From positions 3,664,017 through 3,728,016 of the forward strand of contig CP070727.1 of the NCBI GenBank assembly GCA_020350885.1: DNA of 64,000 nt, read 5' to 3'. Below the pieces are notes generated by a model. The model had not been told where the DNA came from, ran no database searches, and saw nothing but the letters and a program-made list of their open reading frames with translations. Position numbers and translations under genes: made by a program. Below, in pieces: positions 42,042-58,166 of this stretch (positions are counted from its first letter, which is position 1; each line of letters begins with the position of its first letter). This DNA is from a bacterium (lineage in GTDB: Bacteria > Krumholzibacteriota > Krumholzibacteriia > Krumholzibacteriales > Krumholzibacteriaceae).

Positions 42042-43322
42042 TTAGGTGATGCGCTCGATGTTCTCCACGCTCTTCCTGCTGTCGGAATAGGAAAGCTTCT
42101 GGCTCCCCTCGATAACACGGAGCTTCGTGGTGATATGCGAGTGTTCGTAGACGTCCCTCGTGGTCTCGGCCTTTTCCCAGGCGGAACAACGGCTGCCACC
42201 GAGATAGGTGAGAATGGCCGTAAGTGCCGCACCATTCACGAGCACGAAGTAGAACGGCACGAAGAAGACCCGCGATTGAATCCTTCCCCGCCGCAGGAGA
42301 GAACCGATAATCGCCAGTATGTAGAAGATATTCTGCAGGATGAATAGTGTGAGGAAGAATGGTTGCGATACGAGCACCAGATTGGTGAAGTACAGCAGCG
42401 GTAGCATCGGCCCGATCCACCACCTGAGGAGTTTCCTCGATACGAACTGGAATATCCTCAGATGCCCGCCAAAACAGCTTCTCAGGGACCTGAATCCGGT
42501 CAATCCACGAACGATGATGCGGCGCTTGCGGGCGAATTCCTCCCGGAAGAAATAGGTCGATTTCTCGTATGCGACTGCCTCTCGCTCGTATACGACGTCA
42601 TACCCTTGATTGGCGACCTCGGCGGGAAGCTGAAAGTCGTTGGCGACATTACTGATAACGGGGCGGAACAGCTCCCTTCTGATGGCGAATATCGTACCGG
42701 TTCCGACAAGGACCGACCCGACCCGGCTCTCGAGCCGGTTCAGAAGCGATTCGTACCGCCAGTACAGGTTCTCACCCTTCCCGACGTACGAGTGGTTGCT
42801 GAGATAGACGAGCCTTCCAACGACACACCCGACATCCTCGTCCGCAAAGTTCTTGACGAGTTGTTGTATGGCATCCTCCCGGTAGAAGGCATTGGCGTCC
42901 GAGAAGACAAGGATATCATCATCGAGGCCGAGTACCGCACGGTTCAGCGTGGCGCTCTTGCCTTCCCTCGTATCGAAGGCCTTCAATACAAGATTCACAC
43001 CCTCGTAGCTACGCACGACGTCGTTGGTCTCGTCCATCGATCCATCACTCGCAATAACGATCTTGAGACGATCCCTCGGGTAATCGAGCTTCAGGCTGTT
43101 CTCGATCTTTTCCCTGATGATGCGTTCCTCGTTGTAGGCGGATATGATGAGGGCTACGCTCGGTACGTAGCGTTCATTCGAGGAGTGGCGGCGCCTTCTG
43201 AACAACCCGACGACGGCGAGTGCGAGCGGGTATCCGGCATAGACATACAGGATAACACTTATCACAGCGAGAAACAGGAGCTTCGCCGCAACCTGCATTT
43301 CAGCCTCCACAGATGTGGGCAA
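42042..43322 (-). CDS. Membrane glycosyltransferase family 2 (processive PgaC/CESA-like)
   Basis: N-terminal TM helices are followed by the GT-A domain (ALIISAYNEE, DGSMD, VFSDAN for D,D,D). C-terminal TM helices follow. Confidence 0.8.
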   Translation of the reverse strand: MPTSVEAEMQVAAKLLFLAVISVILYVYAGYPLALAVVGLFRRRRHSSNERYVPSVALIISAYNEERIIREKIENSLKLDYPRDRLKIVIASDGSMDETNDVVRSYEGVNLVLKAFDTREGKSATLNRAVLGLDDDILVFSDANAFYREDAIQQLVKNFADEDVGCVVGRLVYLSNHSYVGKGENLYWRYESLLNRLESRVGSVLVGTGTIFAIRRELFRPVISNVANDFQLPAEVANQGYDVVYEREAVAYEKSTYFFREEFARKRRIIVRGLTGFRSLRSCFGGHLRIFQFVSRKLLRWWIGPMLPLLYFTNLVLVSQPFFLTLFILQNIFYILAIIGSLLRRGRIQSRVFFVPFYFVLVNGAALTAILTYLGGSRCSAWEKAETTRDVYEHSHITTKLRVIEGSQKLSYSDSRKSVENIERIT

Positions 43323-43536
43323 GGTGACCTATTAATAACATACCCCGGTAAATCTGCAAAAGATTTTTTTCCGGGGTATCCATAAATAAAACGCTCCCGT
43401 TTTCATCCCATAGGGATTTCTGATTCCCTACATGTACCAAAAACAGTAGCGTTCTATCTATAAGGCTCCTCTTTATTACAAAATAATTGCTTACATGGCC
43501 GCTGTCAATACAGAGACCGGCATTCGGAGGAAAATT

Positions 43537-46500
43537 TTATCGCATGATAATGAGCTTCCTCGTCTCACTCACGCCGGTACTTGTTACCAATCTATAGAAA
43601 TAGATGCCACTTGCAACGCTGCGGCCGTAATTGTTCTTCCCCTCCCAGCCGACTTCGTACCTGCCCGGTCTGCGATGACCGCCGAGGAGGGTCCGCACGA
43701 GTGCTCCCCGGCTATCGAAGATCGAAAGCTCCACGGTACACTCATGGGAGATGTCGTACCGTATGATCGTCGCCGGATTGAAGGGGTTCGGGTAGTTCTG
43801 GTGAAGGGCGGTCCGCTGAGGCGGTGTAGGGAACACATCTTCGTTCTCGTCTATGAACTCTGTGCTCCCGACTATCAGGACGAAGCGGGTCTCCCGCTCG
43901 AACGAGACGGGTGTGCGGGAGCCGAGATGGAATCCGTATGTTCCCTCCTCCTTCAGATCGGCCACGGTTCCGAGGTGCCTGTCGATGAGATAGATACGTG
44001 CATGGGAAGGCAGCCGCTCTAACCCGGTGAAGGACAGATCCACGGGGTCGCCGGCGGTCTCTACGGTAAAGTTCTTCGCCACATCGAAGTGCCAGATATG
44101 ACCCCAAAGGTCCTCCTCCCTTCCGATACCCTCCACAAGGGAGCGGGGGAGTACCCCATACCCTCCCCTGATGTCGACCGCATACCGCCCGGGATTCCGG
44201 CGCCAGCCCCCATGGGGAAAGTAGAGCGACACGGAACGTCCCGGGCTCATGGGTGGCTCGGAACGATCGAGCGGATCCTTTGTACTGACGGCTCGGTGGC
44301 GTACTCCCAGGGCATTCTCGATATCGCATGCGCCCTCAGTCCGCGCCTGAATCGTCAGCATCCACTCGTCCTCACCGAGCCCGTCATCCATCTGCGAGAG
44401 ATGGTCCGCCGATGCGATCTCCGGCTGACCCTGCGGTGCCTCATCCGGCGGAATGCTGAGTATGATGATGGTGTCGCGCAGGTTCTTGACCCAGTACCCC
44501 ACGAAGGGCTCCAGCATGTCCGTCCCGAAGAGATACCCGTCCTTCTCCCAGCGCACAGGCGGCTCGAGAACCGTCCCCACAGCCTCCGCCATCGCAAGAA
44601 GCGGTCCGCCGAGCGTATCGACACGTACCGAATCCCACGCGACCGGGAAGGCGAACGGCGTACCGATCATGTTGTATCCGGGAACGAGTGGAAGTGCGAA
44701 GGGGCCGCCGGTCGGTGTCGAAAGCCCCCGGGCCGGACCGGTTCCGATCTGGTGGCGATCCCGTGAGATGAGCCAGTAGGCCCGGCCCTGCTCGAATGAT
44801 TGCACGGTCTCATTCGGCACCTCGACATAGGCCGAATCGAGCGAATCGTATAGAAAGAGGCGCCACAGCGTGATATCGACCGGACCGAGATCGTCGATGA
44901 GAGCTCCCTCGATGGTCCCCTCCATGTCGAGGGGTATCGACATCATCCGGTATGTGCCCCCCGGATGCTCCCGGGCCTCCACGAGATCCTCCACCGTCAC
45001 CTGTAACGTCTTCGGATTGGTGATCATATCCGATGCCGGATCGGAGAGCGTGCTCGTAAGGGTCTGAATCTCCGCCCAGTACTCGATACCTCTGGCCCCC
45101 ACGATCGTATCGGGGATCGTCGCAAACGGAAGCGGGTCACCGTGTCCGAAATCGAACGTTTCGAAACCCACGGTGCCCCCCCGGCGTACATGAAGATCCC
45201 CCGCACTGAAGTGCGCACCGACGGGGAGGCTTACCTGGACGAGCACATCCCTGCCCGTGATGAAGTCCTGGCCCTCGTTCGGAATCGGTGTCGCCGTGAC
45301 GGATATCGGAGGTACGACTGGCCGGTACCACACGGAATCAGGCGCATTGGGCGGATCGGTCGTGAAGACGCCGCTGTTCTCGACACGGATGTAGTATTCG
45401 AGCCCCGCCTCCGTAACGGCCTCGCCCGGTATCACTACCATGAATGCGTCCTGTAATCTGGTGAGCGCTACGCTGTCCGCAAACACTCCGTCGGCGGCCG
45501 GGCGGTGGTACAGGTATCCCCTCTCGACACGGACATCGGGTGCGGGTGTCACGATCACGGTAACCGCCTCCCCGAGCGGCAGCTCATCCGCCTGCGCGAG
45601 AAGCATCGACTCGATCTCGAGGGCACGTATATCGGCCGTCACCGGGATGGCGATCTCCTGGCGGAGGGGATCGTTGCTTGCGATCCGCATCTCTCCCGAG
45701 GCAGAGAGGATCGTGCGCGGCTCGAGAAATACGCTGATCGTATCGGCTTCACCGGGGGCGACCGAGAGCGGGATCGTCTCCCCGATACGCATCTCGGGAG
45801 AAGGCAGCACGACTCCGGTCGCGGTGAGCACCAGGTTGCCACTGTTTTCGATCTCGATTTCGAGCGAGCAGGTATCACCGACATTGACCGTCGGAAAGGC
45901 GAGGGAGTCCGGTGCGGCCTCTATGGCCGGGCGGCTCGGGACGATCCGACCGACCCTCTTGTGATACGATGTGACATGCTGGCCCAGGCTGACCGAGGCG
46001 GGGATCGAGACGACCCTGAGCCGCAGGACGACGTCCCTCGAATCGAACGGCACGAGAGTAACATCACAATCGAGCGAATCCGGAACGCCTACTGGCGAGG
46101 TCCCGACAGGGCCCACGGGTATCGATGAGCCCAGTACCTCGAGGGGATACCACGTGGGCTCGCCCTCGAATTGATAGGCGGGGACGATCCAGGCTCTATC
46201 CGACTCGACATCGAAGCCGGTATACCAGATACGGTACGTGTTCATATCGACCTTCCGGACCTTCACAAAACGCAGGAAGGCGGGATTATCCGGGAGCTGA
46301 TTCGTCGGCGCGAGCAGGTCCCCCCGGTAGGCGGGGGTCCTGAGACCGGGGAACAGCTCGTTGTCGTGCCCGTCGTTTCCGCACACGAGGTCGAGGTCGC
46401 CATCGGCATCGACATCTCCGAGTGCCATCGAGTAGGTGATATACTCCTTGGTGACAGACCAGTATTGATACATCTGGAAGAGACCATCGTCGTTCAGGTA

Positions 46501-48522
46501 TACCCCGTAGAATCTTACATTTCCACACACCATATCGAGATCGCCGTCATTGTCGAGATCACCGAGAGAGATGCTATAGTCTCCCCCATAGGCGGACGTC
46601 CATGCAGGCGAGGATTGAAAGAGACCACCGTCGTTCAGGTACAATCTACTCGGGGCGCGCATGTTTGCACATACGAGGTCGAGTCGGCCGTCGTAGTCGA
46701 TATCCCCCAGCGCGACACACGCCGTTCCCGACGAAGGGGTCGATGACCACTCCGGCACCCCCCCGAAAACCTCCCCCCCGTTGAGATACAGTGTATTCTG
46801 CCCCATGTTGCCGCAAGCCAGATCCAGGTCCCCGTCGCCATCTGTATCCCCCAGAGCTATGGAGAAGGTGTTTAAACTCTCGGACTGCCAATCAGGAGGT
46901 TCACTGAACACACCGTCTTTGTTCAGGTACAGCCTGTTCCCATTCGGGTCGCCGCACAAGATATCGGTATACCCGTCACCATTGATATCATCCAGCACGA
47001 GGCTCTCGCCACCCTCAAAATCGGAAACCCACGAAGGCTCACTGGGGAAGGTTCCGCCGTCGTTCTCGTAGAGCTGCATCGAAACCCCCGGTGAGCCTCC
47101 CCAGAGGAGATCGAGATCCCCGTCATTGTCGACATCACCGAGAGCCGCCCCGGCGCTTACATCTCCTGAGGTCCAGAAGGGGGTATCCTCGAAGGTTGCG
47201 CCGTTGTTACGGTACATCGCGTTGTTGGGCCCACCGCCGGCCACGAGATCGGGGGCATCGTCTCCATTCAGGTCCCCCAGTACGACGACCATGGTCTGGT
47301 TTGACGGCAAGCCCGCCGACCATGTGGGCTCGGCCGGGAAGAGGTACCCGTTGTTCGTGTAGAGGGTGCTGACCTCTTGGTTGCCGAAGACGAGATCGAG
47401 ATCGCCGTCGCCGTCGACATCCGCGAAACCCATCCCCTCCGATTGGAACGACGGGGCCGTAGACCAGGCCGCAGCCGATTGGAGGCTGTCCCCGAGGTTG
47501 AGGTAGAGCCTGTTCGGTCCTTCGTTTGCGACGGCGAGATCGAGATCGCCGTCGCCGTCGGCATCACCCAGTTCGAGGGAATACGTCGTATCCGCCTCCT
47601 GGGATGTCCAGGAGGGGGTTTCCTCGAAGAGACCGCCAATGTTCATGTAGACGGTATTCGGCTCCATGTAGCTACCGCAGACGAGATCGAGGAGTCCGTC
47701 GCCGTTGATGTCGCCGAGGGCGAGGCATGCAGTCATCTCTTCCGGAATCGATTGCCATGAAGGAACGGTCCGCAGCGAATCGCCGTCGTTCAGGTAGAGC
47801 TCGTTCGCCTGGCCTAAGTTGCCGCACACGAGGTCCAGGTCGTTGTCGTTATCGATATCCCCCAGCGCGACGGCTGTTGTCCACATCGTGGCTCCCGCCG
47901 ACCAGGCCGGCTGCTGCGGAAAGGTCCCGTCCCCGTTGTTCAGAAAGAGCTTGTTCTGCTGAAAAAGGTTTCCGCAGACGAGGTCGAGGTGCCCGTCGCC
48001 GTTCACGTCGGCGAATGCGATACCGAATGTGCTGTCGGGGGATTCCGAGATCCATGCCGGCTCCTCCTGAAACACGCCCCCGTCACCGAGATACAACTTG
48101 TTATATCTGATACCCTCGAGGCCCCCGCAGGTGAAGATGTCGAGATCGCCGTCCCTATCCACATCACCGAGTGCGAACCGTAAACAGTCTATCGGACTCG
48201 ACGTCCAGAACGGCATGAGATCAAATACACGACCGTTGTTTCGGTATAGGGTCAGGTCACCGCCGGTAGCGATAATCAGGTCGAGGTCACCGTCACGGTC
48301 CAGGTCACAGAGCGCAGCATATTCCGCTCCCGCGGCTGTACCCGAAGTCCAGACGGGATCGACCGGGAATGGGGGCTCCTGCCCCTGGCATGGAACAGAA
48401 GCGGCAATGACAACAAGAAACGCAAGAACCGTTACGGTAAGACAAAACCGTGAAGCGGACGCCTGTACAACCGCGTACCTGCCCCGTCTGCGGGGATAGA
48501 TATGAGATCTTTCCATTTCCAT
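43537..48522 (-). CDS. Giant secreted FG-GAP/VCBS-repeat protein with T9SS C-terminal sorting domain
   Basis: It has a signal peptide (FCLTVTVLAFLVVIAASVPCQGQ). There are more than 14 repeats of the Ca-binding D-x-D-x-DG-x-x-D-L FG-GAP signature (GDVDRDGDLDIF, GDIDNDNDLDLV...). The C-terminus QNYPNPFNPATIIRYDI...GIYFYRL is a type-A T9SS C-terminal domain. The ATG at 48522 overlaps the kinase gene's TGA stop (TGATG). Confidence 0.85.
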   Translation of the reverse strand: MEMERSHIYPRRRGRYAVVQASASRFCLTVTVLAFLVVIAASVPCQGQEPPFPVDPVWTSGTAAGAEYAALCDLDRDGDLDLIIATGGDLTLYRNNGRVFDLMPFWTSSPIDCLRFALGDVDRDGDLDIFTCGGLEGIRYNKLYLGDGGVFQEEPAWISESPDSTFGIAFADVNGDGHLDLVCGNLFQQNKLFLNNGDGTFPQQPAWSAGATMWTTAVALGDIDNDNDLDLVCGNLGQANELYLNDGDSLRTVPSWQSIPEEMTACLALGDINGDGLLDLVCGSYMEPNTVYMNIGGLFEETPSWTSQEADTTYSLELGDADGDGDLDLAVANEGPNRLYLNLGDSLQSAAAWSTAPSFQSEGMGFADVDGDGDLDLVFGNQEVSTLYTNNGYLFPAEPTWSAGLPSNQTMVVVLGDLNGDDAPDLVAGGGPNNAMYRNNGATFEDTPFWTSGDVSAGAALGDVDNDGDLDLLWGGSPGVSMQLYENDGGTFPSEPSWVSDFEGGESLVLDDINGDGYTDILCGDPNGNRLYLNKDGVFSEPPDWQSESLNTFSIALGDTDGDGDLDLACGNMGQNTLYLNGGEVFGGVPEWSSTPSSGTACVALGDIDYDGRLDLVCANMRAPSRLYLNDGGLFQSSPAWTSAYGGDYSISLGDLDNDGDLDMVCGNVRFYGVYLNDDGLFQMYQYWSVTKEYITYSMALGDVDADGDLDLVCGNDGHDNELFPGLRTPAYRGDLLAPTNQLPDNPAFLRFVKVRKVDMNTYRIWYTGFDVESDRAWIVPAYQFEGEPTWYPLEVLGSSIPVGPVGTSPVGVPDSLDCDVTLVPFDSRDVVLRLRVVSIPASVSLGQHVTSYHKRVGRIVPSRPAIEAAPDSLAFPTVNVGDTCSLEIEIENSGNLVLTATGVVLPSPEMRIGETIPLSVAPGEADTISVFLEPRTILSASGEMRIASNDPLRQEIAIPVTADIRALEIESMLLAQADELPLGEAVTVIVTPAPDVRVERGYLYHRPAADGVFADSVALTRLQDAFMVVIPGEAVTEAGLEYYIRVENSGVFTTDPPNAPDSVWYRPVVPPISVTATPIPNEGQDFITGRDVLVQVSLPVGAHFSAGDLHVRRGGTVGFETFDFGHGDPLPFATIPDTIVGARGIEYWAEIQTLTSTLSDPASDMITNPKTLQVTVEDLVEAREHPGGTYRMMSIPLDMEGTIEGALIDDLGPVDITLWRLFLYDSLDSAYVEVPNETVQSFEQGRAYWLISRDRHQIGTGPARGLSTPTGGPFALPLVPGYNMIGTPFAFPVAWDSVRVDTLGGPLLAMAEAVGTVLEPPVRWEKDGYLFGTDMLEPFVGYWVKNLRDTIIILSIPPDEAPQGQPEIASADHLSQMDDGLGEDEWMLTIQARTEGACDIENALGVRHRAVSTKDPLDRSEPPMSPGRSVSLYFPHGGWRRNPGRYAVDIRGGYGVLPRSLVEGIGREEDLWGHIWHFDVAKNFTVETAGDPVDLSFTGLERLPSHARIYLIDRHLGTVADLKEEGTYGFHLGSRTPVSFERETRFVLIVGSTEFIDENEDVFPTPPQRTALHQNYPNPFNPATIIRYDISHECTVELSIFDSRGALVRTLLGGHRRPGRYEVGWEGKNNYGRSVASGIYFYRLVTSTGVSETRKLIIMR

Positions 48523-50471
48523 CACCTTCGCCGAAACAGTGATGAAAGAAACGATCCTCCCTCTGTGCCCCCGGCCTGCTGTGCCAGGATGAAATCGTTC
48601 AACGTCTTCGAGCAGATCGAGTACTCCCCGTCCGAGGCGAGCAGGTATCCCCTGCGCATGAGATCCTCGTTTACGAACTGATACTTCTTGCTTATCGACT
48701 TGCCCGAGGCGATGCGGCCGAGGTTCTCCCGCTCCTCCTCATTCATGCGCTCCCACAGGAACTGGTAGTGGGGAGAGACCTCGTCTATGTACGAACGAGC
48801 AATCTGCTCCCAATCGGGCTCGGAGTCGGGATTGTCGAGGAGGAATTCGAAGACGTTCGAGCAGGCGATCTGGAGGAAAAGGGGGAAGTAACCCGCCAGC
48901 TCGATGATCCTTCCCGCGTGCGCCCCGAGCGGAATCCCCTCTCGCTCGGAAGGGTCTGTGATGAGCTCTACTGCCTCGTCCCGGCTGAAGGCCCTGAGCG
49001 GCAGGTTCGAGAATATGTTGAAGAACGGCGAATCGGAGATGTCCTTGTTGTGGCACATGAGCTGGAGCTCCTCGCAGGAGGAGGTGACGTAGGCGACATG
49101 GTAGCTGTTCGCCAGCGAGCGCAGGAAGGAGAAAAAGTCCTCCTCGAACTTCTCGTTCTTCGTGATCACCTCGAATTCATCCATGAGAACGATGATTCTG
49201 TTGCCCTGATCGTGGAGCTCCTGTACCACTTCCTTGAGCTGGTCCAGCGTCCTGTCCCGTCCGGAGTACCCCTCGCTGTCCTGCGTCTCGAAGCTGAAGA
49301 CGTTGAAGAGAAAATCGATGAATTTGGGCACGTCGAAGTCGACGTTGCGCTGGAAATCGAGATAGACGAAGATTGCATTCTCGTAGTGCTGCATGTTCTG
49401 CTTACGGTTCCGGCGGTTGTAGATGAAGTTCAGGAGCGACGACTTTCCGATACGCCGTTCGCCGACGACTGAGATCGATTGCGGATGGGGCGCATCGAGG
49501 CGCGAATAGATCTTCCGGACCTCCTTGCTCCTGCCCACTAAATCGACCGGGTTCTTGATCATGACTCTGTTGAGATAGGGATTGCGCTTGCTGCTGCGCT
49601 TGGCGAATGCCTTGACATCCGGAAGAGAAGCGATCACAGCGCTCTCGTCATCGGCATACTTCTTGAGCAGCGTAGCAAGATCGTCTGCGAGTTCGTTGAA
49701 GTCGCTGTACCGCTTGTTCGGGCTCTTCTCGAGGCACCGCCGGATGACGGTCTTGAAATCCGTGGGTACCTCGTCGACGAATTCGAGATTCGATTCATTC
49801 ACGATTGAATACATGAGGGCAGCCGGGTGTTCGGCTTCGAACGGGAAGTAGCCGTTGAGGATGCGGAAGAGACAGACACCGAAGGAGAAGATATCGGTGC
49901 GCTCGTCGACCGGCTCGCCGAGTATCTGCTCGGGTGATATATACGAGGGAGTTCCCATCATCGTATTGCCGGTGGTCTGGATCGACGTGTTTACGAGCTT
50001 GACGAGACCGAAATCGAGGATCTTCACCCGGGCACCCTCGCCGCTCGCCGTATCGAGCATGATATTCTTGAGCGTGAGATCCCGATGTATGACCCCCTGG
50101 CCGTGTGCGCACAACATCGCCTTGCAGACCTGGAGTGCCAGCGAGCATTCCTGTGAGATCGTAAGCGATCCTTTCCCGATAAATTCTTCGAGTGAGGGAC
50201 CGTGTATGTGTTCCATGACGAGGAAGGTCTTTCCCTCGAAGTCCCCGCAGTCGAAGACCGTCACGATGTTCGGATGGTTTATCCTCGCAAGGGTTTCCGC
50301 CTCCCGGATCAACCGCTCACGGGCACTGCTATTGACACCGCCTGCGGTGAGGATCTTCACTGCAACCGGCCGCTTCAGTTTCATATCGACCGCCTGGTAG
50401 ACGGTGCCGAAGCCGCCCTCTCCGATCTTCTTCTCGATCTCGTACTTTTCTAAGAGAACCGTTCCAATCAT
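48522..50471 (-). CDS. Hanks-type Ser/Thr protein kinase fused to a C-terminal P-loop NTPase (AAA_16/STAND-like) domain
   Basis: Kinase motifs are IGEGGFGTVY (GxGxxG), AVKIL (VAIK), HRDLTLKN (catalytic loop), DFG and PSYISPE (APE). The C-terminal half carries LVGRSKEV...SVVGERRIGKSSLLNFI (Walker A) and DEFE (Walker B-like). Confidence 0.85.
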   Translation of the reverse strand: MIGTVLLEKYEIEKKIGEGGFGTVYQAVDMKLKRPVAVKILTAGGVNSSARERLIREAETLARINHPNIVTVFDCGDFEGKTFLVMEHIHGPSLEEFIGKGSLTISQECSLALQVCKAMLCAHGQGVIHRDLTLKNIMLDTASGEGARVKILDFGLVKLVNTSIQTTGNTMMGTPSYISPEQILGEPVDERTDIFSFGVCLFRILNGYFPFEAEHPAALMYSIVNESNLEFVDEVPTDFKTVIRRCLEKSPNKRYSDFNELADDLATLLKKYADDESAVIASLPDVKAFAKRSSKRNPYLNRVMIKNPVDLVGRSKEVRKIYSRLDAPHPQSISVVGERRIGKSSLLNFIYNRRNRKQNMQHYENAIFVYLDFQRNVDFDVPKFIDFLFNVFSFETQDSEGYSGRDRTLDQLKEVVQELHDQGNRIIVLMDEFEVITKNEKFEEDFFSFLRSLANSYHVAYVTSSCEELQLMCHNKDISDSPFFNIFSNLPLRAFSRDEAVELITDPSEREGIPLGAHAGRIIELAGYFPLFLQIACSNVFEFLLDNPDSEPDWEQIARSYIDEVSPHYQFLWERMNEEERENLGRIASGKSISKKYQFVNEDLMRRGYLLASDGEYSICSKTLNDFILAQQAGGTEGGSFLSSLFRRR

Positions 50472-52711
50472 TGCCGCTCACTCTCTTGTGCAAAACTGTA
50501 CTCGAACGGAACTGTCTGGCCCGATTTCACCTCGACGGTACGCTCGACCGTTTCGTAGGATGGATGACGCAGTTCGATCCGGTAGGTCCCCGGGGCGAGC
50601 TCGACAGGCAGATAGACCGCACTCTCCTCGATCAACTCACCATTTATCCATATCTCGGCATAGGGTGTGATCTGGAATACCAGTGTCCCGGGGGGAAGGG
50701 GTCCGAGTGTCACCCGGACACGGTTGTTCGGTGCCGGAATCGAGATCCTGCTCCTCTCCGTACGGAATCCCTCAAGTCTCAGCTCGAGAACATGCTCCCC
50801 CTGGGAAACGGAGGCGAGGCTCGTCGGCGCCGTTGCGATCTTCCGCCCATCGAGATACACAACGGCCCCCGCCGGTTCGGAATCGACAGTAAGCGGGTGG
50901 GTGAGCTTCGAGAATGAGTGATGGAGGGCGACCATCGAGTCGTTGTACACCGACACACCTTGAAAGCTCCGGCTGCTGTACCCCGAAAGACGGAGGTCGA
51001 TGTCGTACCGCTGGTTGACCGAGAGCCCGGTGAGCGTGTCCGGGGTCACCGATCCGGAGTCCTCCCCGTCTACGACGATACGTGCCCCGGGTGGATCGGT
51101 GGTGACGTGGAGGTTCCCCCGAAGCTCCTCGAGAACGATCATGCGTTCGAACGGCTCGTTCTTCACCAGCTCTACCGAATCGATGTACTCCTGGTATCCC
51201 GAAAGCTCGGCCCGTACTGTGGTATGCCTGGCCGCCACCGTTTCTCGTTCTACAGGTGATCTGCCGATCCACTGCTCTCCGATGAAGATGTTGGCCTGGG
51301 CTGGTTGTGTCCTGACCGTTACGACCGTAGAATCGCGAGCGCGACCGCCCCCGATACCACCGGCACCCGGCACACCGGCCCGAAAGAATATCTGGTAGAG
51401 AAACAGAAGGGCAACCACAACGATAACGGCCGAGGAAACAGCAATGATGCGTGTACGGGAGAATCGCTTTCCGACCGGTCTGAGCCCCTCCTCGAGCTCC
51501 TCTTCGCTACCACCGATCTCGTTTATCACCTGCCAGATCGAATGCATGCGGGCCATCCACAGCCGCCACAGGTCCATCTTGAACGTATAGGTATCCCCCC
51601 GTGCGTTCTTCTCCAGCAGGTCATGGTAAAAGAGCCGCTCCACCGTCTCCCGCACCTTGTTCCCGTCGAGCTGGTAGCCGATTTTTTCTTCTGCGGAAAA
51701 CGCAACGATCTCGTCAGGAGCGACCTCACGGATATCCTCCTTGCTCAACTCCGCAATGATCGAGATCGACACCTTTTCGAGGGCCGAGAGCGATGTCCAC
51801 GAAAAGATCATCTGGGGGAGCGGGTTCTCTATGATCTCCCGTGTGACTTCCCGCACGTCTTCCTGTGTCACCCGGTTCTTCTCCTTCTCGTTCAGGTGGT
51901 CCACCAGTGATTGACACAGGACCTGTGTATAGAAGGGCTGTCCGGCCGTGAGCGAATAAATCTCTTCCGGTACATCTTCGTCGTAGGAAACCGAGTCCCG
52001 CACCGGATCGCGTATCAGCCGCATGGTATCGGCCTCACTCAGAAAGCTTATTCTCCGGTGGAGTGCCTTGCCCAGGAAGTGCTCCCAGTACCGGGGATTG
52101 CGTGCTTCGAGCTTGTCGGAGCCGGTGAAGATGATAAAGACCCCTGCCCTGTGTTCCATCCATCCCGCCAGGGCGTTCAGTATGTCCGTGCTGAAACGGT
52201 TCTTGTCGATATGTGTCTCGAAGAGCTCGTATTCATCGAACATCAAAACGAGCTTTCTATCTCCCAGCCTTGCACCAATCCTCTCGGTTAAGATCTGGAA
52301 TGCTGCATATGGATTATCAGTTGCACGGGCTGTGAAATCCCGCTCGAATATGATCTCCGGATCACCGATCGACTCGGTAACCTCCCGGGCGAGTGATTCG
52401 AGGAACTCGTGATCGTTTTCCACCGTCATCGACTGCATATCGATGAGTATCGGAATATAACTCTCGCCGAGTCGCCCCCCCTTGATCTGAAAGAGTATCG
52501 ACGTCTTTCCGCTTCGCCGTGTCCCGCACAGAACGATCAAACCTCCCCGCGTGGCACCCGTGACCTTTTTCCTGATGTACTCGAAGTCATCCTCACGGCC
52601 GAAGAACATCCTGCGGTCCTCGATTGGATTGCCAACGATGTATGGATTGTGGATCATCTGGAATGTGTCATCATCTTCTGGTCGCATCGCGGGGCTCCTT
52701 ACACGTACCAC
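50468..52711 (-). CDS. P-loop NTPase (AAA_16/STAND-like)-TM-4xPEGA domain protein
   Basis: The N-terminus NPYIVGNPI..FFGRED...LCGTRRSGKTSILFQI is Walker A, with MFDEYE downstream. There is a single TM helix (IIAVSSAVIVVVALLFLYQIFF). Four PEGA-like repeats follow (PAQANIFIGEQWIGRSP..., PPGARIVVDGEDSGSVTP..., PAGAVVYLDGRKIATAP..., PYAEIWINGELIEE...). Its stop overlaps the kinase start (ATGA). Confidence 0.8.
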   Translation of the reverse strand: MVRVRSPAMRPEDDDTFQMIHNPYIVGNPIEDRRMFFGREDDFEYIRKKVTGATRGGLIVLCGTRRSGKTSILFQIKGGRLGESYIPILIDMQSMTVENDHEFLESLAREVTESIGDPEIIFERDFTARATDNPYAAFQILTERIGARLGDRKLVLMFDEYELFETHIDKNRFSTDILNALAGWMEHRAGVFIIFTGSDKLEARNPRYWEHFLGKALHRRISFLSEADTMRLIRDPVRDSVSYDEDVPEEIYSLTAGQPFYTQVLCQSLVDHLNEKEKNRVTQEDVREVTREIIENPLPQMIFSWTSLSALEKVSISIIAELSKEDIREVAPDEIVAFSAEEKIGYQLDGNKVRETVERLFYHDLLEKNARGDTYTFKMDLWRLWMARMHSIWQVINEIGGSEEELEEGLRPVGKRFSRTRIIAVSSAVIVVVALLFLYQIFFRAGVPGAGGIGGGRARDSTVVTVRTQPAQANIFIGEQWIGRSPVERETVAARHTTVRAELSGYQEYIDSVELVKNEPFERMIVLEELRGNLHVTTDPPGARIVVDGEDSGSVTPDTLTGLSVNQRYDIDLRLSGYSSRSFQGVSVYNDSMVALHHSFSKLTHPLTVDSEPAGAVVYLDGRKIATAPTSLASVSQGEHVLELRLEGFRTERSRISIPAPNNRVRVTLGPLPPGTLVFQITPYAEIWINGELIEESAVYLPVELAPGTYRIELRHPSYETVERTVEVKSGQTVPFEYSFAQESERQ

Positions 52712-52755
52712 CTGGATGAATCGAGGAGACGGAGCACGGACACTCCCTCTGGGGA

Positions 52756-53511
52756 TTACTGACCCGGTGGCGCGGGAGGTTCGGGCAGCGGCTCAGGCTG
52801 GGGAGCTCCTTCGCCGCCGGCGCCGCCGAGGGTCACGGCGAGGATGATGCCCGCCGCAACCGCTGGGCCGATACGGTAGAACCACCAGCGCTTGTTGCGC
52901 CGACGGTCCATTGAGACTTCCAGGATATGTTTTCCGCTCGGATCGATCCTGATCGTCTCTTTATAATCGTAATATCCGGACTTCGTAACCATGAGCTCAT
53001 ATGAGCCGATCCTGATGAGATCGAGCTTGAGCGGCGTTTCCCCCTTGAATTCTTCACCGAGAAAAACTCTACAGTCCCCTGGCTTAGTGATCTCCAAGGT
53101 GCCGAACATCTCGCTCCGGAGCTGGTTGTATATTTCATTTACCCGCGGGGGGAACTCGACCGGATCGGCTACCAGGTCGGCAAACTGCTCCAATCCTTCG
53201 CGGGCCTGTGCAATGGCGCTTGCATCCTCTTTCATCAAAAGGAACGTAAACACTATGTGGTTATACGCACGCTTCAGGATATCATCCGATTCGGAATACT
53301 GATTGATGATGTTGTTGAGCAGCTGTATCGCCTCGTTGAACTCACCCCGTGCCCTGAGAGAGCTTACCAGCTCCCACTTCTGATATATCTGCTCCTGAGC
53401 GGCACCACGGGCAACCGAGGCGTAAGACGAGATCAAAAACAGTACGCACAGTAGTATGGTAAACGAACAGAAACGCCGCGAGAACGAGAAACGGATCTCT
53501 GAAAGGCACAT
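52756..53511 (-). CDS. TPR-like + PEGA domain membrane protein with Pro-rich tail
   Basis: It has a signal/TM segment (FCSFTILLCVLFLISSYASVA) and a helical TPR-like region. The PEGA domain is GDCRVFLGEEFKGETPLKLDLIRIGSYELMVTKSGYYDY. A TM helix and a PQPEPLPEPPAPP tail follow. The start was chosen at the ATG at 53511. Confidence 0.65.
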   Translation of the reverse strand: MCLSEIRFSFSRRFCSFTILLCVLFLISSYASVARGAAQEQIYQKWELVSSLRARGEFNEAIQLLNNIINQYSESDDILKRAYNHIVFTFLLMKEDASAIAQAREGLEQFADLVADPVEFPPRVNEIYNQLRSEMFGTLEITKPGDCRVFLGEEFKGETPLKLDLIRIGSYELMVTKSGYYDYKETIRIDPSGKHILEVSMDRRRNKRWWFYRIGPAVAAGIILAVTLGGAGGEGAPQPEPLPEPPAPPGQ

Positions 53512-53637
53512 GGCCCGACCTCCATCCAAGGGCTTCGACGATATCTTTTCGTAAATATTCCCTGTATAACTTATCATATATGAAGAGGATAGATTATAGC
53601 AAGACAAATCTGCGCAGCGTGTGGGAAACCCCGTTCA

Positions 53638-55635
53638 CTATGGCATGACCTTCGTCACACCTCCATATTGCGTTCCGATCCACAGCGAGCCGGAATGATC
53701 CTCACAGAGCGTGCGGATGTGTCCATCGGTCAATCCCTGTGAGATCTGCACATGAATCCACTCTCCCCGGCGTCTGACATAGACCCCGTCACTCTCCGTC
53801 CCGACCCAGATCTCGCCCCTGCTCGTACCGATGATCGCCGTCGGCACGAAACCGGAGACACGCTGTGGCGGATCGATTATCTGCCACCCCGTACCCGTCA
53901 GCCGGAAGATGCCGTCTTGCCGAGCCAGCAGACAATTACCGGCCATATCGAGCCCGAGTATGTTGCCCCGTGACCGGGTACCCTCCGGTTCGCTCCCCTC
54001 GAGCCTGCCGAGGAATCGGATCCCGGGATCGAGTCGCAGAAGCGTATCCTGCTGGGCACCGGACGTATCGGCTCCCGCTCCGTAGGGAACCGGTAAGACC
54101 GCCTCCTCCCAGCGTCCCTCCGAATACCTCGCCAATGTACCGTCCGCGGTGAGAATCCATGGATACCCCGCTCCATCGACGACGAGGGAGCCGATACGGT
54201 TCTGCGGAAGTCCGTTCCTCTCGGTATAGTGAATCCACTCCCGCCCGGTGAACTCGAGTACGCCGCGATCGAACGAAGCGAACCATAAACTACCTGAAGG
54301 ATCGAAGGAGAGCGCCACGAAATGCTCCGTCGGCAATCCCTGACGCCTGTCGAACAGATTCCATGATCGGCCGTCGAAGTGAAGTATCCCGAAACGTGTG
54401 GCGACCCACATCTCCTCATCGTCTGTGACGAAGAGATCAGTCATCGTCCCGGAGCACCATTCCAGCGGCGGGGTGACTTCGGTTAGATCCTCCCCGAGTC
54501 GGTAGATGCTCCGCTCGGCAAGAAACCAGAGCGCCGGGCCGAACCGTTGCACGGATATGACATGCTTGCTCGGAAATCCTTGGGGCATAGCAACTTCCCG
54601 CACTGCGTCCCTCGAGAGGACGAAGACGGTGCCCTCGTCGGTGCCGAGGTAACAGATCCCCTCGAGGTCATGATGAATCGACAGGAACCGGTACTGTGTA
54701 AGATTCACGCCCGGTAGCCGATAGGGTGTCCACGCCGAGCCATCGAAGCTACTCACGCCCGCCCCGCCCGCAGCCCACAGGCGGCCCGTAGGATCGAGGC
54801 TGAAGCCATGGATCTCATCGCTGGGAAGACCATCCCTTACCCCAAACAGCCGAACACGCCCGAGATTGTACAGAACAACCCCCTTGCGTGCGATCGCCAG
54901 AAAAAGATTTCCTTCCTCATCCAGCGCAAGTTCCTCCACTGCACCGATGGGAATACGGCTCCCGTACCGCATCGATTCCCAACTCAGTGTATCCGACCTG
55001 CACAGTCCGCTCGCAGTTCCGAACCATACCGTGTGTGGGTCCTGCTCGAGGATCGTCAGCACACGGTCGTCGAGCAGGGAATCCTGCCGGGTATAGACGG
55101 TGAGTGAATCGTCTCGTATATAGGCGCATCCATCGCCGTATGTCGCGATCCACACCACGGCATCGCCGCGAACGATGTCCGTGACCCTCCTGAAAAAACC
55201 GCGGTGCCCGGAGGGTAGATGAATCCACCTGCCGTCCCGTCTCACACTTACGCCCCCGTCGCCCCCCACCCAGAGCGAACCGGTATCATCGGCCATGATT
55301 GTCCGTATCGAGACAAATGCCGGTCCCCTGACCGATGAAACGGAGTCCTCCACCGTGTTGTAGGCGAAGAGCCCGCCCTCCGTCCCGACCCATAATGTAT
55401 CATCCTGGCTGAGAAGCGCTCTGATCTCCCTGGCGGGAACATGCCGAACGATGGTTCCTGAAAGGCCAAAAGGACCGAGCCGGTCAACCCAGTACAGGGG
55501 CTTCCGGTCACCTGAAACGATCCACCCACCGGGTTCTCTCGGTTCCTCCTCGGGGATTTCTTCGCCGGCAAGAGGGGTGGCACCGATCACGAGTGCGAGA
55601 ATTCCAAGCAATGAGACGACTGTCCGAATGTTCAT
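53638..55635 (-). CDS. Secreted double beta-propeller protein built from ~14 two-component-regulator propeller (Reg_prop) repeats. There are no kinase or HTH domains
   Basis: It has a signal peptide. It contains about 14 recurring ~45-aa units with the [LF]W[VIF][GA]T..G[LV] signature (DDTLWVGTEGGLFAYN, GSLWVGGDGGVSV, HTVWFGTASGLCR, EEMWVATRFGILHF, GEIWVGTESDGVYV, GSLWIGTQYGGVTKV...). Confidence 0.75.
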   Translation of the reverse strand: MNIRTVVSLLGILALVIGATPLAGEEIPEEEPREPGGWIVSGDRKPLYWVDRLGPFGLSGTIVRHVPAREIRALLSQDDTLWVGTEGGLFAYNTVEDSVSSVRGPAFVSIRTIMADDTGSLWVGGDGGVSVRRDGRWIHLPSGHRGFFRRVTDIVRGDAVVWIATYGDGCAYIRDDSLTVYTRQDSLLDDRVLTILEQDPHTVWFGTASGLCRSDTLSWESMRYGSRIPIGAVEELALDEEGNLFLAIARKGVVLYNLGRVRLFGVRDGLPSDEIHGFSLDPTGRLWAAGGAGVSSFDGSAWTPYRLPGVNLTQYRFLSIHHDLEGICYLGTDEGTVFVLSRDAVREVAMPQGFPSKHVISVQRFGPALWFLAERSIYRLGEDLTEVTPPLEWCSGTMTDLFVTDDEEMWVATRFGILHFDGRSWNLFDRRQGLPTEHFVALSFDPSGSLWFASFDRGVLEFTGREWIHYTERNGLPQNRIGSLVVDGAGYPWILTADGTLARYSEGRWEEAVLPVPYGAGADTSGAQQDTLLRLDPGIRFLGRLEGSEPEGTRSRGNILGLDMAGNCLLARQDGIFRLTGTGWQIIDPPQRVSGFVPTAIIGTSRGEIWVGTESDGVYVRRRGEWIHVQISQGLTDGHIRTLCEDHSGSLWIGTQYGGVTKVMP

Positions 55636-57116: not shown

Positions 57117-57401
57117 TATAGCGTCTCGCTGCGGGGTGGCGGTGCCCTTGCGTGCTCTTACTACCTTCTTCGAACCGTTCATGCAAACCGCATTCCAAAC
57201 TCCGCGCAAGGCAATCACCGGTCGTTCAAAAACCGATTCACCCTACCGGCGGCTTCTCGAACGTGTCATCCTTTGGCCTCCCACATTCCAACGGTCGTCT
57301 CCATTGCCCGGCCGGATTGACTGATGCAGACCGATCGACTACAATGAATAGCGTACGGATTTCCGCTGTAGAGAACATTTCCTGTTGCCGGGCATCGTGT
57401 C

Positions 57402-58166
57402 ATGCACGCAATTGAACACGACAGGGAGAAGCTGGAGCAGGCCGCCGGACGCCTCTCCCGATCGGAACGAACCATCGTCTCGACGGGGTCCGGCATTTCG
57501 CGAGAGAGCGGCATTCCCACCTTCAGGGGTGAGGACGGACTCTGGCAGAACCATCGCCCCGAAGAACTCGCCTCCCGGGAAGGATTCCTCTCGAATCCCG
57601 GGCTCGTCTGGCGTTGGTACCGTGAGCGGCTCGGGACCGCCAGAGCAAAGCAACCGAATCCGGGTCATCGTGCCATCGCCAGGCTCGAACCTCTGATCCC
57701 AAACTTTCTCCTCATCACCCAGAACATCGACAACCTGCACCGGCGCGCCGGCAGCAAGGAGATCGTTGAGCTTCACGGAAACATCGAACGGTACCGCTGC
57801 TTCGAGTATTCGCATCCCGCCGAGGAGGATCCTCAGTGGGGTGACGAGCCGCCCCGGTGCCACTGCGGCTCCATAATACGACCCGACGTGGTCTGGTTCG
57901 GGGAACCGTTACCCGAAGCCGAGATCGAGTGTGCCTTCCGGGAATCGGCGCGCTGCGATACATTCCTCGTCGTCGGTACTTCGGGCATGGTGCAGCCTGC
58001 TGCCCTCCTTCCGCAGGTCGCAAGAAACGCCGGGGCACTGCTTATCGAGGTCAATGAAACGCCTTCGGAGATCACTCCCATCGTCGACATCTTTCTGCAA
58101 GGCAAGGCCGGTGAGACCCTGCCGCCGCTCGTGGACCGGATCGAAGAGCTGGTCTCTCGAGGGTAA
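57402..58166 (+). CDS. cobB: NAD-dependent protein deacylase, Sir2 family
   Basis: GSGISRESGIPTFRG, QNIDNLH and the CxxC...CxC zinc ribbon (RCFEYSHP...CHCGS) are present. Confidence 0.85.
   Translation: MHAIEHDREKLEQAAGRLSRSERTIVSTGSGISRESGIPTFRGEDGLWQNHRPEELASREGFLSNPGLVWRWYRERLGTARAKQPNPGHRAIARLEPLIPNFLLITQNIDNLHRRAGSKEIVELHGNIERYRCFEYSHPAEEDPQWGDEPPRCHCGSIIRPDVVWFGEPLPEAEIECAFRESARCDTFLVVGTSGMVQPAALLPQVARNAGALLIEVNETPSEITPIVDIFLQGKAGETLPPLVDRIEELVSRG

Follow-up and report, generated by a model that had tools for sequence, protein, structure and literature searches.

We found that four adjacent minus-strand genes in a 64,000-nt stretch of a Krumholzibacteriaceae genome (GenBank assembly GCA_020350885.1, contig CP070727.1, positions 3,664,017 to 3,728,016; hereafter the window) form a conserved, chromosomally inherited cassette. 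We name the minus-strand open reading frames (ORFs) concerned g1 to g5, counted in reading direction from window position 55635 down to 43537. The cassette comprises g2 to g5, which encode a PEGA accessory protein, a membrane-spanning nucleoside triphosphatase (NTPase) with four PEGA domains, a cytoplasmic protein kinase fused to a second NTPase, and a giant secreted FG-GAP protein, respectively; g1 encodes a secreted propeller directly upstream. The evidence for the four-gene unit and its architecture is solid. By a slim preference, we read the cassette as a split transmembrane receptor system of the STAND type that would carry signals across the cytoplasmic membrane, and the evidence for this signalling mechanism is moderate.

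All five open frames lie on the minus strand (g1, 53638-55635; g2, 52756-53607; g3, 50468-52711; g4, 48522-50471; g5, 43537-48525), and the genes and their TGATG and ATGA overlaps are present where the initial annotation had placed them. The spacing between g1 and g2 is 30 nt if g2 starts at TTG 53607 and 126 nt if it starts at ATG 53511; the latter is the likely start, because the resulting protein of 251 aa matches the lengths of its orthologues (245-265 aa). Similarly, g2 and g3 are 44 nt apart with GTG 52711 and 68 nt apart with ATG 52687, the likely start of g3, because an identical database protein (P0001, 739 aa) begins there. The g3 and g4 genes share an ATGA overlap of 4 nt at 50468-50471, and g4 and g5 meet in a TGATG overlap that counts as -1 with ATG 48522 and -4 with GTG 48525. 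The tight translational coupling proposed earlier for the whole row is thus supported by the overlaps for g3, g4 and g5 only. Promoter-like and terminator-like sites occurred at chance level in our scans and do not define transcription units. Long plus-strand ORFs (100-300 aa) run antisense to g3-g5, and a further one lies at 42462-43385 (plus strand), all without family matches; these are the usual by-product of a G+C content of 56-63%, and not genes.

We characterized the conservation of the cassette by scanning one genome per species, which yielded 173 relatives, and by fetching 79 loci, 30 of which have the same architecture (FCB-type, after the Fibrobacterota-Chlorobiota-Bacteroidota group). 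Synteny was counted from tblastn searches of the window's proteins against the fetched loci, because greedy ORF calling sometimes picked antisense frames in GC-rich loci (cluster c10). In all 28 FCB-type loci that have downstream sequence, g4 directly follows g3, so that the pairing of kinase-NTPase with NTPase-PEGA genes withstands the neighbourhood check. Of the 18 FCB loci that could be scored for spacing between g3 and g4, 10 keep the 4-nt overlap and 7 of the remaining 8 have a gap of at most 22 nt. An orthologue of g2 is found in 24 of the 30 loci, 19 times directly upstream of g3, once upstream with g5 in between (L014) and four times convergent downstream of g4, the last being the Eisenbacteria-type loci. 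Full-length orthologues of g5 (35-48% identity over residues ~100-1662) are present in 15 of the 30 loci, which bears out the proposed tie between the giant protein and its neighbours, and three loci are ordered g2-g5-g3-g4. A further locus, L080, carries g2-g3-g4-g5, including the full-length g5 orthologue, with a PrsW protease gene on one side and a VIT-VWA gene on the other. Recurrence in several phyla puts the gene arrangement far beyond chance.

The genes flanking the cassette are housekeeping genes that differ between lineages, and the window's own flanks (M61 peptidase, Wzz, GT2 and GT4) never accompany it in the 30 loci. Searches of 72,556 plasmids returned one weak match, and searches of 2.9 million viral contigs returned one weak partial match.

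The g3 gene (50468-52687, minus strand, with an open frame reaching GTG 52711) is predicted to encode a 739-aa bitopic protein with a cytoplasmic NTPase module (~51490-52687), a single transmembrane helix (51392-51448, residues 414-432 of 739 in a hydropathy scan) and four extracytoplasmic PEGA domains (~50471-51325; 132 bits in 4 stretches, Pfam). No curated family covers the P-loop module: its Pfam matches are all sub-threshold (AAA_22, 25.2 bits with a cutoff of 27; ATPase_2, 23.3 with 33.2; nSTAND1, 19.2 with 27.1), and NCBIfam returned no relevant match. Searches of the Protein Data Bank (PDB) with the g3 profile and with the g4 NTPase found no solved structure related by sequence, and we therefore turned to fold comparison. 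By this comparison, the g3 module resembles solved STAND/ORC-class ATPases; its winged helix comes after a helical domain that carries a GxP motif, and it is best described as a SSO1545/ATPase_2-like, STAND-type NTPase. The module is strongly conserved, and its Walker A (GTRRSGKTS) and Walker B (LVLMFDEYE) motifs do not vary in two alignments, one of 17 and one of 41 sequences. Homologues of the g3 protein number 717 at E<=1e-5, are mostly ~730 aa long and 45-60% identical, and come from Latescibacterota, Krumholzibacteriota, Eisenbacteria and relatives.

The g4 gene (48522-50471, minus strand) encodes a 649-aa protein in which a hydropathy scan found no transmembrane segment, and which is predicted to be cytoplasmic. 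It consists of an N-terminal Hanks-type protein kinase (~49632-50471; Pkinase, 180 bits) and a C-terminal nSTAND2 NTPase (~48672-49541; PF20702, 155.3 bits with a cutoff of 24, the match extending over positions 3-268 of the 279 in the model). The NTPase is paralogous to that of g3, as the initial annotation had suggested (23% identity over 303 aa, E = 2e-5). The two have in common an N-terminal NPY...GR motif, a Walker A motif of the form G-RR-GK[ST]S, a Walker B motif of the form DE[YF]E, and GxP, all invariant among orthologues. The kinase K, HRD, N, DFG-D and APE positions of g4 are likewise invariant in 23 of 23 orthologues, as are the Walker A Lys, Walker B Asp and GxP motif of its NTPase. 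With all catalytic residues kept, both NTPases and the kinase look functional.

The catalytic loop of the g4 kinase reads HRDLTLKN (residues 129-136, in the region of window positions 49995-50087), and HRDLTL[KR]N gives the commonest residue at each loop position across the 23 orthologues. Ser/Thr kinases typically have a Lys at the second position past HRD, and tyrosine kinases read HRDLAARN. The g4 loop differs from HRDLKPxN in having no such Lys, and its basic residue four positions past HRD is tyrosine-kinase-like. Because the loop reads HRDLTL[KR]N, the substrate specificity of g4 may be other than plain Ser/Thr.

We found relatives of this NTPase pair well beyond the FCB-type loci. The g3 NTPase module alone retrieves 7006 representative proteins at E<=1e-3 and 981 at E<=1e-30, where representatives are one per cluster at 50% identity. 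The g3 family is widespread in Acidobacteriota, Spirochaetota and the FCB group, and its module stands at the N- or C-terminus of proteins of 600 to 2250 aa. In Blastocatellia, it forms the end of a signal peptide-CarboxypepD_reg-Reg_prop-transmembrane helix-NTPase protein (helix at residues 953-971 of 1413). Other sampled forms are Reg_prop+Y_Y_Y-NTPase, Laminin_G_3-CarboxypepD_reg-Reg_prop-Y_Y_Y-NTPase, TPR-NTPase and NTPase-RHS. We located the transmembrane helix in two proteins, g3 and the Blastocatellia fusion, and in both the predicted topology has the NTPase on the cytoplasmic side of the membrane and the variable domain on the outer side.

Across lineages, 54 loci have room for a partner gene, and 50 of them encode an nSTAND2 protein no more than 6 kb away. 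The partner carries a kinase in 44 loci and a class III cyclase in 6, with two loci having both. The domain order is reversed in Blastocatellia (nSTAND2-kinase), spirochaetes pair a bare nSTAND2 protein with a cyclase-nSTAND2 protein, and Calditrichota pair a bare nSTAND2 protein with a kinase-cyclase-nSTAND2 protein. In one protein (P0143), nSTAND2 and the g3-type NTPase are fused in a single chain. Close nSTAND2 homologues also carry SpoIIE/PP2C or Guanylate_cyc domains, and one carries TIR_2. The PP2C-nSTAND2 and TIR-nSTAND2 relatives that we checked are solo genes without a membrane NTPase partner; consequently, the membrane-NTPase pairing marks one subtype of the nSTAND2 family and does not extend to all of it.

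In spirochaetes, a conserved secreted protein of ~305 aa is encoded between the NTPase-PEGA and nSTAND2 genes (L051:12098-13012), with equivalents in L031, L035, L056 and L078. Its N-terminal sequence is TPR-like, Pfam gives no match for it, and it may be an analogue of g2. The Calditrichota versions have an outer-membrane-barrel-like protein (Phenol_MetA_deg) in its place.

The split-receptor reading assigns a role to each protein. STAND proteins are activated by nucleotide-dependent co-assembly. The outside domain varies, the paralogous ATPase pair is constant and the partner enzyme varies, a typical signal-transduction pattern; on this basis, g3 would be the receptor and g4 the transmitter. 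The receptor would cross the membrane once and expose its four PEGA beta-sandwich domains to the periplasm, and g2, itself a PEGA-containing membrane protein, probably works with these domains. A cue from the envelope or the surface would alter the oligomeric or nucleotide state of the cytoplasmic STAND-type ATPase of g3, which would then assemble with the paralogous nSTAND2 ATPase module of g4. The Hanks-kinase domains of g4 would thereby be brought together, become activated and phosphorylate their targets. The giant g5 protein may be a surface component whose state the system senses, or else an output that it regulates. Within this scheme, we infer the hetero-oligomerisation, the direction of signal flow, the existence of a ligand and the activation of the kinase by proximity. 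We find a surface or envelope signalling function, as put forward in the initial annotation, reasonable.

The closest described system to the cassette is an nSTAND2 two-gene operon, and it suggests a different role. Kaur, Iyer, Burroughs and Aravind (2021, eLife, PMC8195603, Fig. 6C) described a proteobacterial operon of two STAND NTPases (MNS-like/nSTAND2), which they called mobile, predicted to be counter-invader and proposed to form a hetero-oligomer; one of its NTPases is inactive and is fused to TPR-HEPN or GT4 effectors. By analogy, the cassette could be an anti-phage or counter-invader conflict system in which two STAND NTPases sense an invader and the kinase is released as the effector. 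The 155-bit match of g4 to Pfam nSTAND2 agrees with this proposal, as does the listing of one Calditrichaeota locus of the present type in the table of the same study, which makes the counter-invader prediction for the two-STAND-NTPase operon (PMC8195603). Moreover, the g4 kinase matches the defence proteins PD-T4-6 and mad6 in PADLOC-DB v2, Ser/Thr kinases being known in defence, and TIR_2 is found on one close nSTAND2 homologue.

The cassette resembles the published operon in that g3 and g4 are adjacent and each is a STAND-type NTPase, and it departs from it in most other respects. Both of its NTPases are catalytically intact, as opposed to one eroded copy with HEPN or GT4 effectors, and one of them spans the membrane and bears extracytoplasmic domains. 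Its outputs are kinases and cyclases, and the wider nSTAND2 family adds PP2C phosphatases; they are not toxins. Its sensors are predicted to face outward. Rather than being mobile and sporadic, it is a chromosomal unit whose conservation extends over several phyla. The g3 NTPase keeps 45-60% identity between candidate phyla and has many invariant residues, the cassette is flanked by lineage-specific housekeeping genes, and plasmids and viral contigs have essentially no members of the family. The matches of g4 to PD-T4-6 and mad6 run through the generic kinase domain only; the NTPases match no defence model in PADLOC-DB v2, where g3 has one 22-bit match and g1, g2 and g5 have none. We consider a conflict role unlikely. 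A mobile element or defence island was rejected as the main explanation in the light of what the plasmid, viral, PADLOC and flank searches showed.

The remaining two cassette members are predicted to reside in the membrane and beyond it. The g2 gene (52756-53511, minus strand, with an open frame reaching TTG 53607) encodes a 251-aa protein with one PEGA domain (33.4 bits, Pfam) and two hydrophobic segments in a hydropathy scan, a putative signal or anchor at residues 9-27 and a transmembrane helix at residues 214-232. A family consensus from 15 orthologues keeps a helical region, the PEGA domain, the C-terminal transmembrane helix and the tail after it, whose conserved sequence reads PEPLPxPPxPP (window 52756-52830). 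The TPR earlier assigned to g2 is a weak call, since TPR_14 scores 17.3 bits, below its cutoff of 23.5. The other domain assignments (PEGA, Reg_prop, Pkinase, FG-GAP and the C-terminal domain of the type IX secretion system, T9SS) were confirmed by Pfam and NCBIfam searches.

The g5 gene (43537-48522, minus strand) starts at an ATG (48522) within the overlap with the g4 stop and is predicted to encode a secreted giant of 1661 aa. Its layout comprises a signal peptide (a hydrophobic, signal-like N-terminal segment in the hydropathy scan), ~13-14 FG-GAP/VCBS repeats in the N-terminal ~750 aa (FG-GAP_3, 337 bits in 13 stretches), one Ig-like domain of the ASH / choice-of-anchor D type, a region of ~600 aa and a T9SS end; FlgD_ig scores 32.3. 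The middle region has no relatives in Pfam or the PDB, and the C-terminal half holds no known domain besides the one Ig-like unit. The T9SS type-A C-terminal domain (~43540-43794, minus strand) scores 26.6 bits against NCBIfam TIGR04183 (cutoff 23), and the T9SS call is borderline because the Pfam Por_Secre_tail score (19.1) is below its cutoff of 27. The orthologue in L059 scores 27.8 against Por_Secre_tail, and another Por_Secre_tail protein is encoded on L082, a related contig.

The retention of g5 beside g2, g3 and g4 in 15 of the 30 loci and in L080, permuted orders included, raises the alternative that the cassette is a dedicated biogenesis, export or quality-control machine for g5, in which the membrane ATPase and the PEGA proteins handle the giant and the kinase tunes the process. 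Two loci agree with such a dependence. One, in a metagenome-assembled genome labelled Deferribacteres (L059:9983-20217), encodes, in this order, a 662-aa NTPase of the g3 type, a 239-aa PEGA protein and a 2487-aa giant with 17 FG-GAP_3 units, an Ig domain and a T9SS C-terminal domain; the available sequence contains no kinase gene, with the contig ending shortly past the giant gene. The other, in a Fibrobacteraceae metagenome-assembled genome (L010:12698-17563, minus strand), encodes a giant in which RCC1 repeats (260 bits) replace FG-GAP, the C-terminal half of g5 is kept and the end is of the FlgD_ig type; we read this as a swap of propeller type on a conserved stalk.

Against a machine devoted to g5, pairs of g3-type and nSTAND2 proteins occur without a g5-like gene in Blastocatellia, Spirochaetota and Calditrichota. 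The ATPase has a STAND/ORC-class switch fold and not a translocase fold, and the partner outputs include cyclases. T9SS cargo, moreover, is not known to require a private ATPase. We regard this explanation as improbable; it might hold for the FCB form, but it leaves the lineages that lack g5 unaccounted for. Because g5 is co-inherited in many FCB lineages and is missing from other versions (those of Blastocatellia and spirochaetes), it is best seen as an add-on to the core NTPase pair.

Upstream of the cassette, g1 (53638-55635, minus strand) encodes a 665-aa secreted Reg_prop propeller (91.6 bits, Pfam). Its AlphaFold2 model (pLDDT 86.3) has ~14 blades, predicting a tandem seven-bladed fold, and its best Foldseek matches are the periplasmic sensors BT4663, BT3049 and BT4673 (E ~1e-24), followed by PorZ. 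A signal-like segment is found at the N-terminus only, and the C-terminal end lies inside a propeller blade; Pfam and hydropathy scans found no Y_Y_Y domain, transmembrane helix, fused histidine kinase, receiver or helix-turn-helix module. The orthologue family comprises ~107 full-length standalone propellers (40-62% identity).

We found that g1 belongs to a conserved backbone ordered TyrRS-CMD-Wzz/GNVR-M61 peptidase-g1-GT2-(flippase)-GT4-PDZ-Yip1-EF-G-YebC-RuvC. This backbone includes g1 and lacks g2-g5 in four independent contexts (L082, L083/L084, the contig of P0271, and L085). The same backbone runs gene by gene through window positions 35077-62318, where g2-g5 stand after g1 and before GT2. 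Since the backbone of g1 recurs without g2-g5, we read the five-gene row as a four-gene cassette beside a gene of another conserved block. The five-gene operon of the initial annotation therefore stands in part: g2-g5 are a conserved cassette, and g1 is part of the neighbouring backbone. The backbone is collinear in several Krumholzibacteria-like contigs, which makes the standalone propeller a conserved companion of a polysaccharide-type Wzz/GT2/GT4 block. A 174-aa ORF (57339-57863, minus strand), located in the window between the genes for Wzz and the M61 peptidase, has no Pfam match and is kept in L081 and L082 (42-49% identity).

A functional unit of all five genes, in which the standalone propeller is a periplasmic sensor feeding the g3/g4 pair, could still be argued from several observations. 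The g1 gene directly precedes the cassette in the window, in L081 (~61% identity) and in a 4455-bp contig common to P0273 and P0002; Reg_prop domains, with or without Y_Y_Y, are fused to g3-type NTPases in other phyla; and the modelled structure of g1 is that of a sensor of the hybrid two-component system (HTCS) type. The fusions make a functional link between g1 and g3 possible by analogy. However, g1 stands beside the cassette in the close lineage of the window alone, and the cassette lacks it in all 30 FCB-type genome loci and in L080. Together with the four backbone contexts that have g1 and no g2-g5, this ruled out g1 as a conserved cassette member. In addition, the likely start of g2 leaves a spacer of 126 nt, so that coupling of g1 to g2 is not evident. 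We think it improbable that the propeller feeds the pair, and the five-gene version survives as a lineage-specific possibility only.

The split-receptor reading that we prefer also has evidence to contend with. The assembly of its two NTPases into a hetero-oligomer is drawn from their adjacency, their paralogy and one fusion, and we know of no established binding function for PEGA domains. The topology of g2 is ambiguous, because a basic cluster (RRRNKRWW) stands directly before its C-terminal transmembrane helix. The role of g5 is unexplained by this reading, and the core pair can do without g5. Close nSTAND2 homologues include solo genes, one of them with a TIR domain. Finally, nSTAND2 has been treated in a single publication, and the role predicted there is a counter-invader one (PMC8195603).

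Several other known systems share parts of this design. In its tandem seven-bladed Reg_prop fold, g1 is like the hybrid two-component sensors BT4663, BT3049 and BT4673, and g3 relatives, like HTCS proteins, have Reg_prop+Y_Y_Y on the outer side of the membrane. Unlike those sensors, g1 has no Y_Y_Y domain and no histidine kinase, receiver or AraC module, and the transmitter in the g3 relatives is a STAND-type NTPase in place of a histidine kinase. MalT, PknK-type kinase-ATPase proteins, cyclase-ATPase fusions and the TOMM kinase/cyclase (TIGR03903) are cytoplasmic STAND-fused signalling proteins, each a single soluble chain that senses cytoplasmic ligands via C-terminal repeats. In contrast to them, the cassette has two paralogous NTPases, one of which is tethered by a transmembrane helix to extracytoplasmic domains. 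In Actinobacteria, the GlnH-GlnX-PknG system places a soluble Ser/Thr kinase under a separate membrane protein and a periplasmic component (PMC9769921). The cassette resembles it in that kinase, membrane protein and periplasmic component are encoded in one operon, which is a predicted one in the case of the cassette; the proteins themselves are unrelated, GlnX being a four-helix membrane protein and GlnH a solute-binding protein, and that system has no NTPases.

Literature searches on PEGA with STAND and kinase, and on membrane-anchored STAND receptors, returned two Aravind-group papers and otherwise unrelated work. We also considered 'System 4' of Kaur et al. 2020 as a match and rejected it as a different system (EACC1 + caspase). 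In the literature searched, we found no description of membrane-spanning NTPases of the g3 family, of their pairing with kinase- or cyclase-nSTAND2 proteins, or of the link to a giant FG-GAP protein, and the cassette as a whole was not found described, in line with the novelty first claimed for the arrangement.

More broadly, and more tentatively, the g3 family may be an unrecognised class of transmembrane receptor in which a STAND-type ATPase replaces the histidine kinase and is joined to classical extracytoplasmic sensor domains such as PEGA, Reg_prop+Y_Y_Y and TPR. We rate this wider proposal, which includes nucleotide-dependent assembly with an nSTAND2 partner carrying a kinase, cyclase or phosphatase, somewhat below even; it would amount to a membrane-bound, NLR-like signalosome for environmental sensing.

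Bacterial transmembrane signalling is usually treated under the headings of histidine kinases, chemoreceptors, membrane-bound Ser/Thr kinases, cyclases and anti-sigma factors. If our reading is true, the cassette would add a further route, whereby a membrane-tethered STAND ATPase relays an outside cue to a separate STAND-kinase or STAND-cyclase protein. The logic of eukaryotic NLR and apoptosome assemblies would then be applied to envelope sensing. It would also fill an annotation gap, as the 981 clusters without a curated model belong mainly to poorly studied phyla. For these organisms, the association with a giant, integrin-like T9SS protein points to a possible way into the control of surface adhesion.

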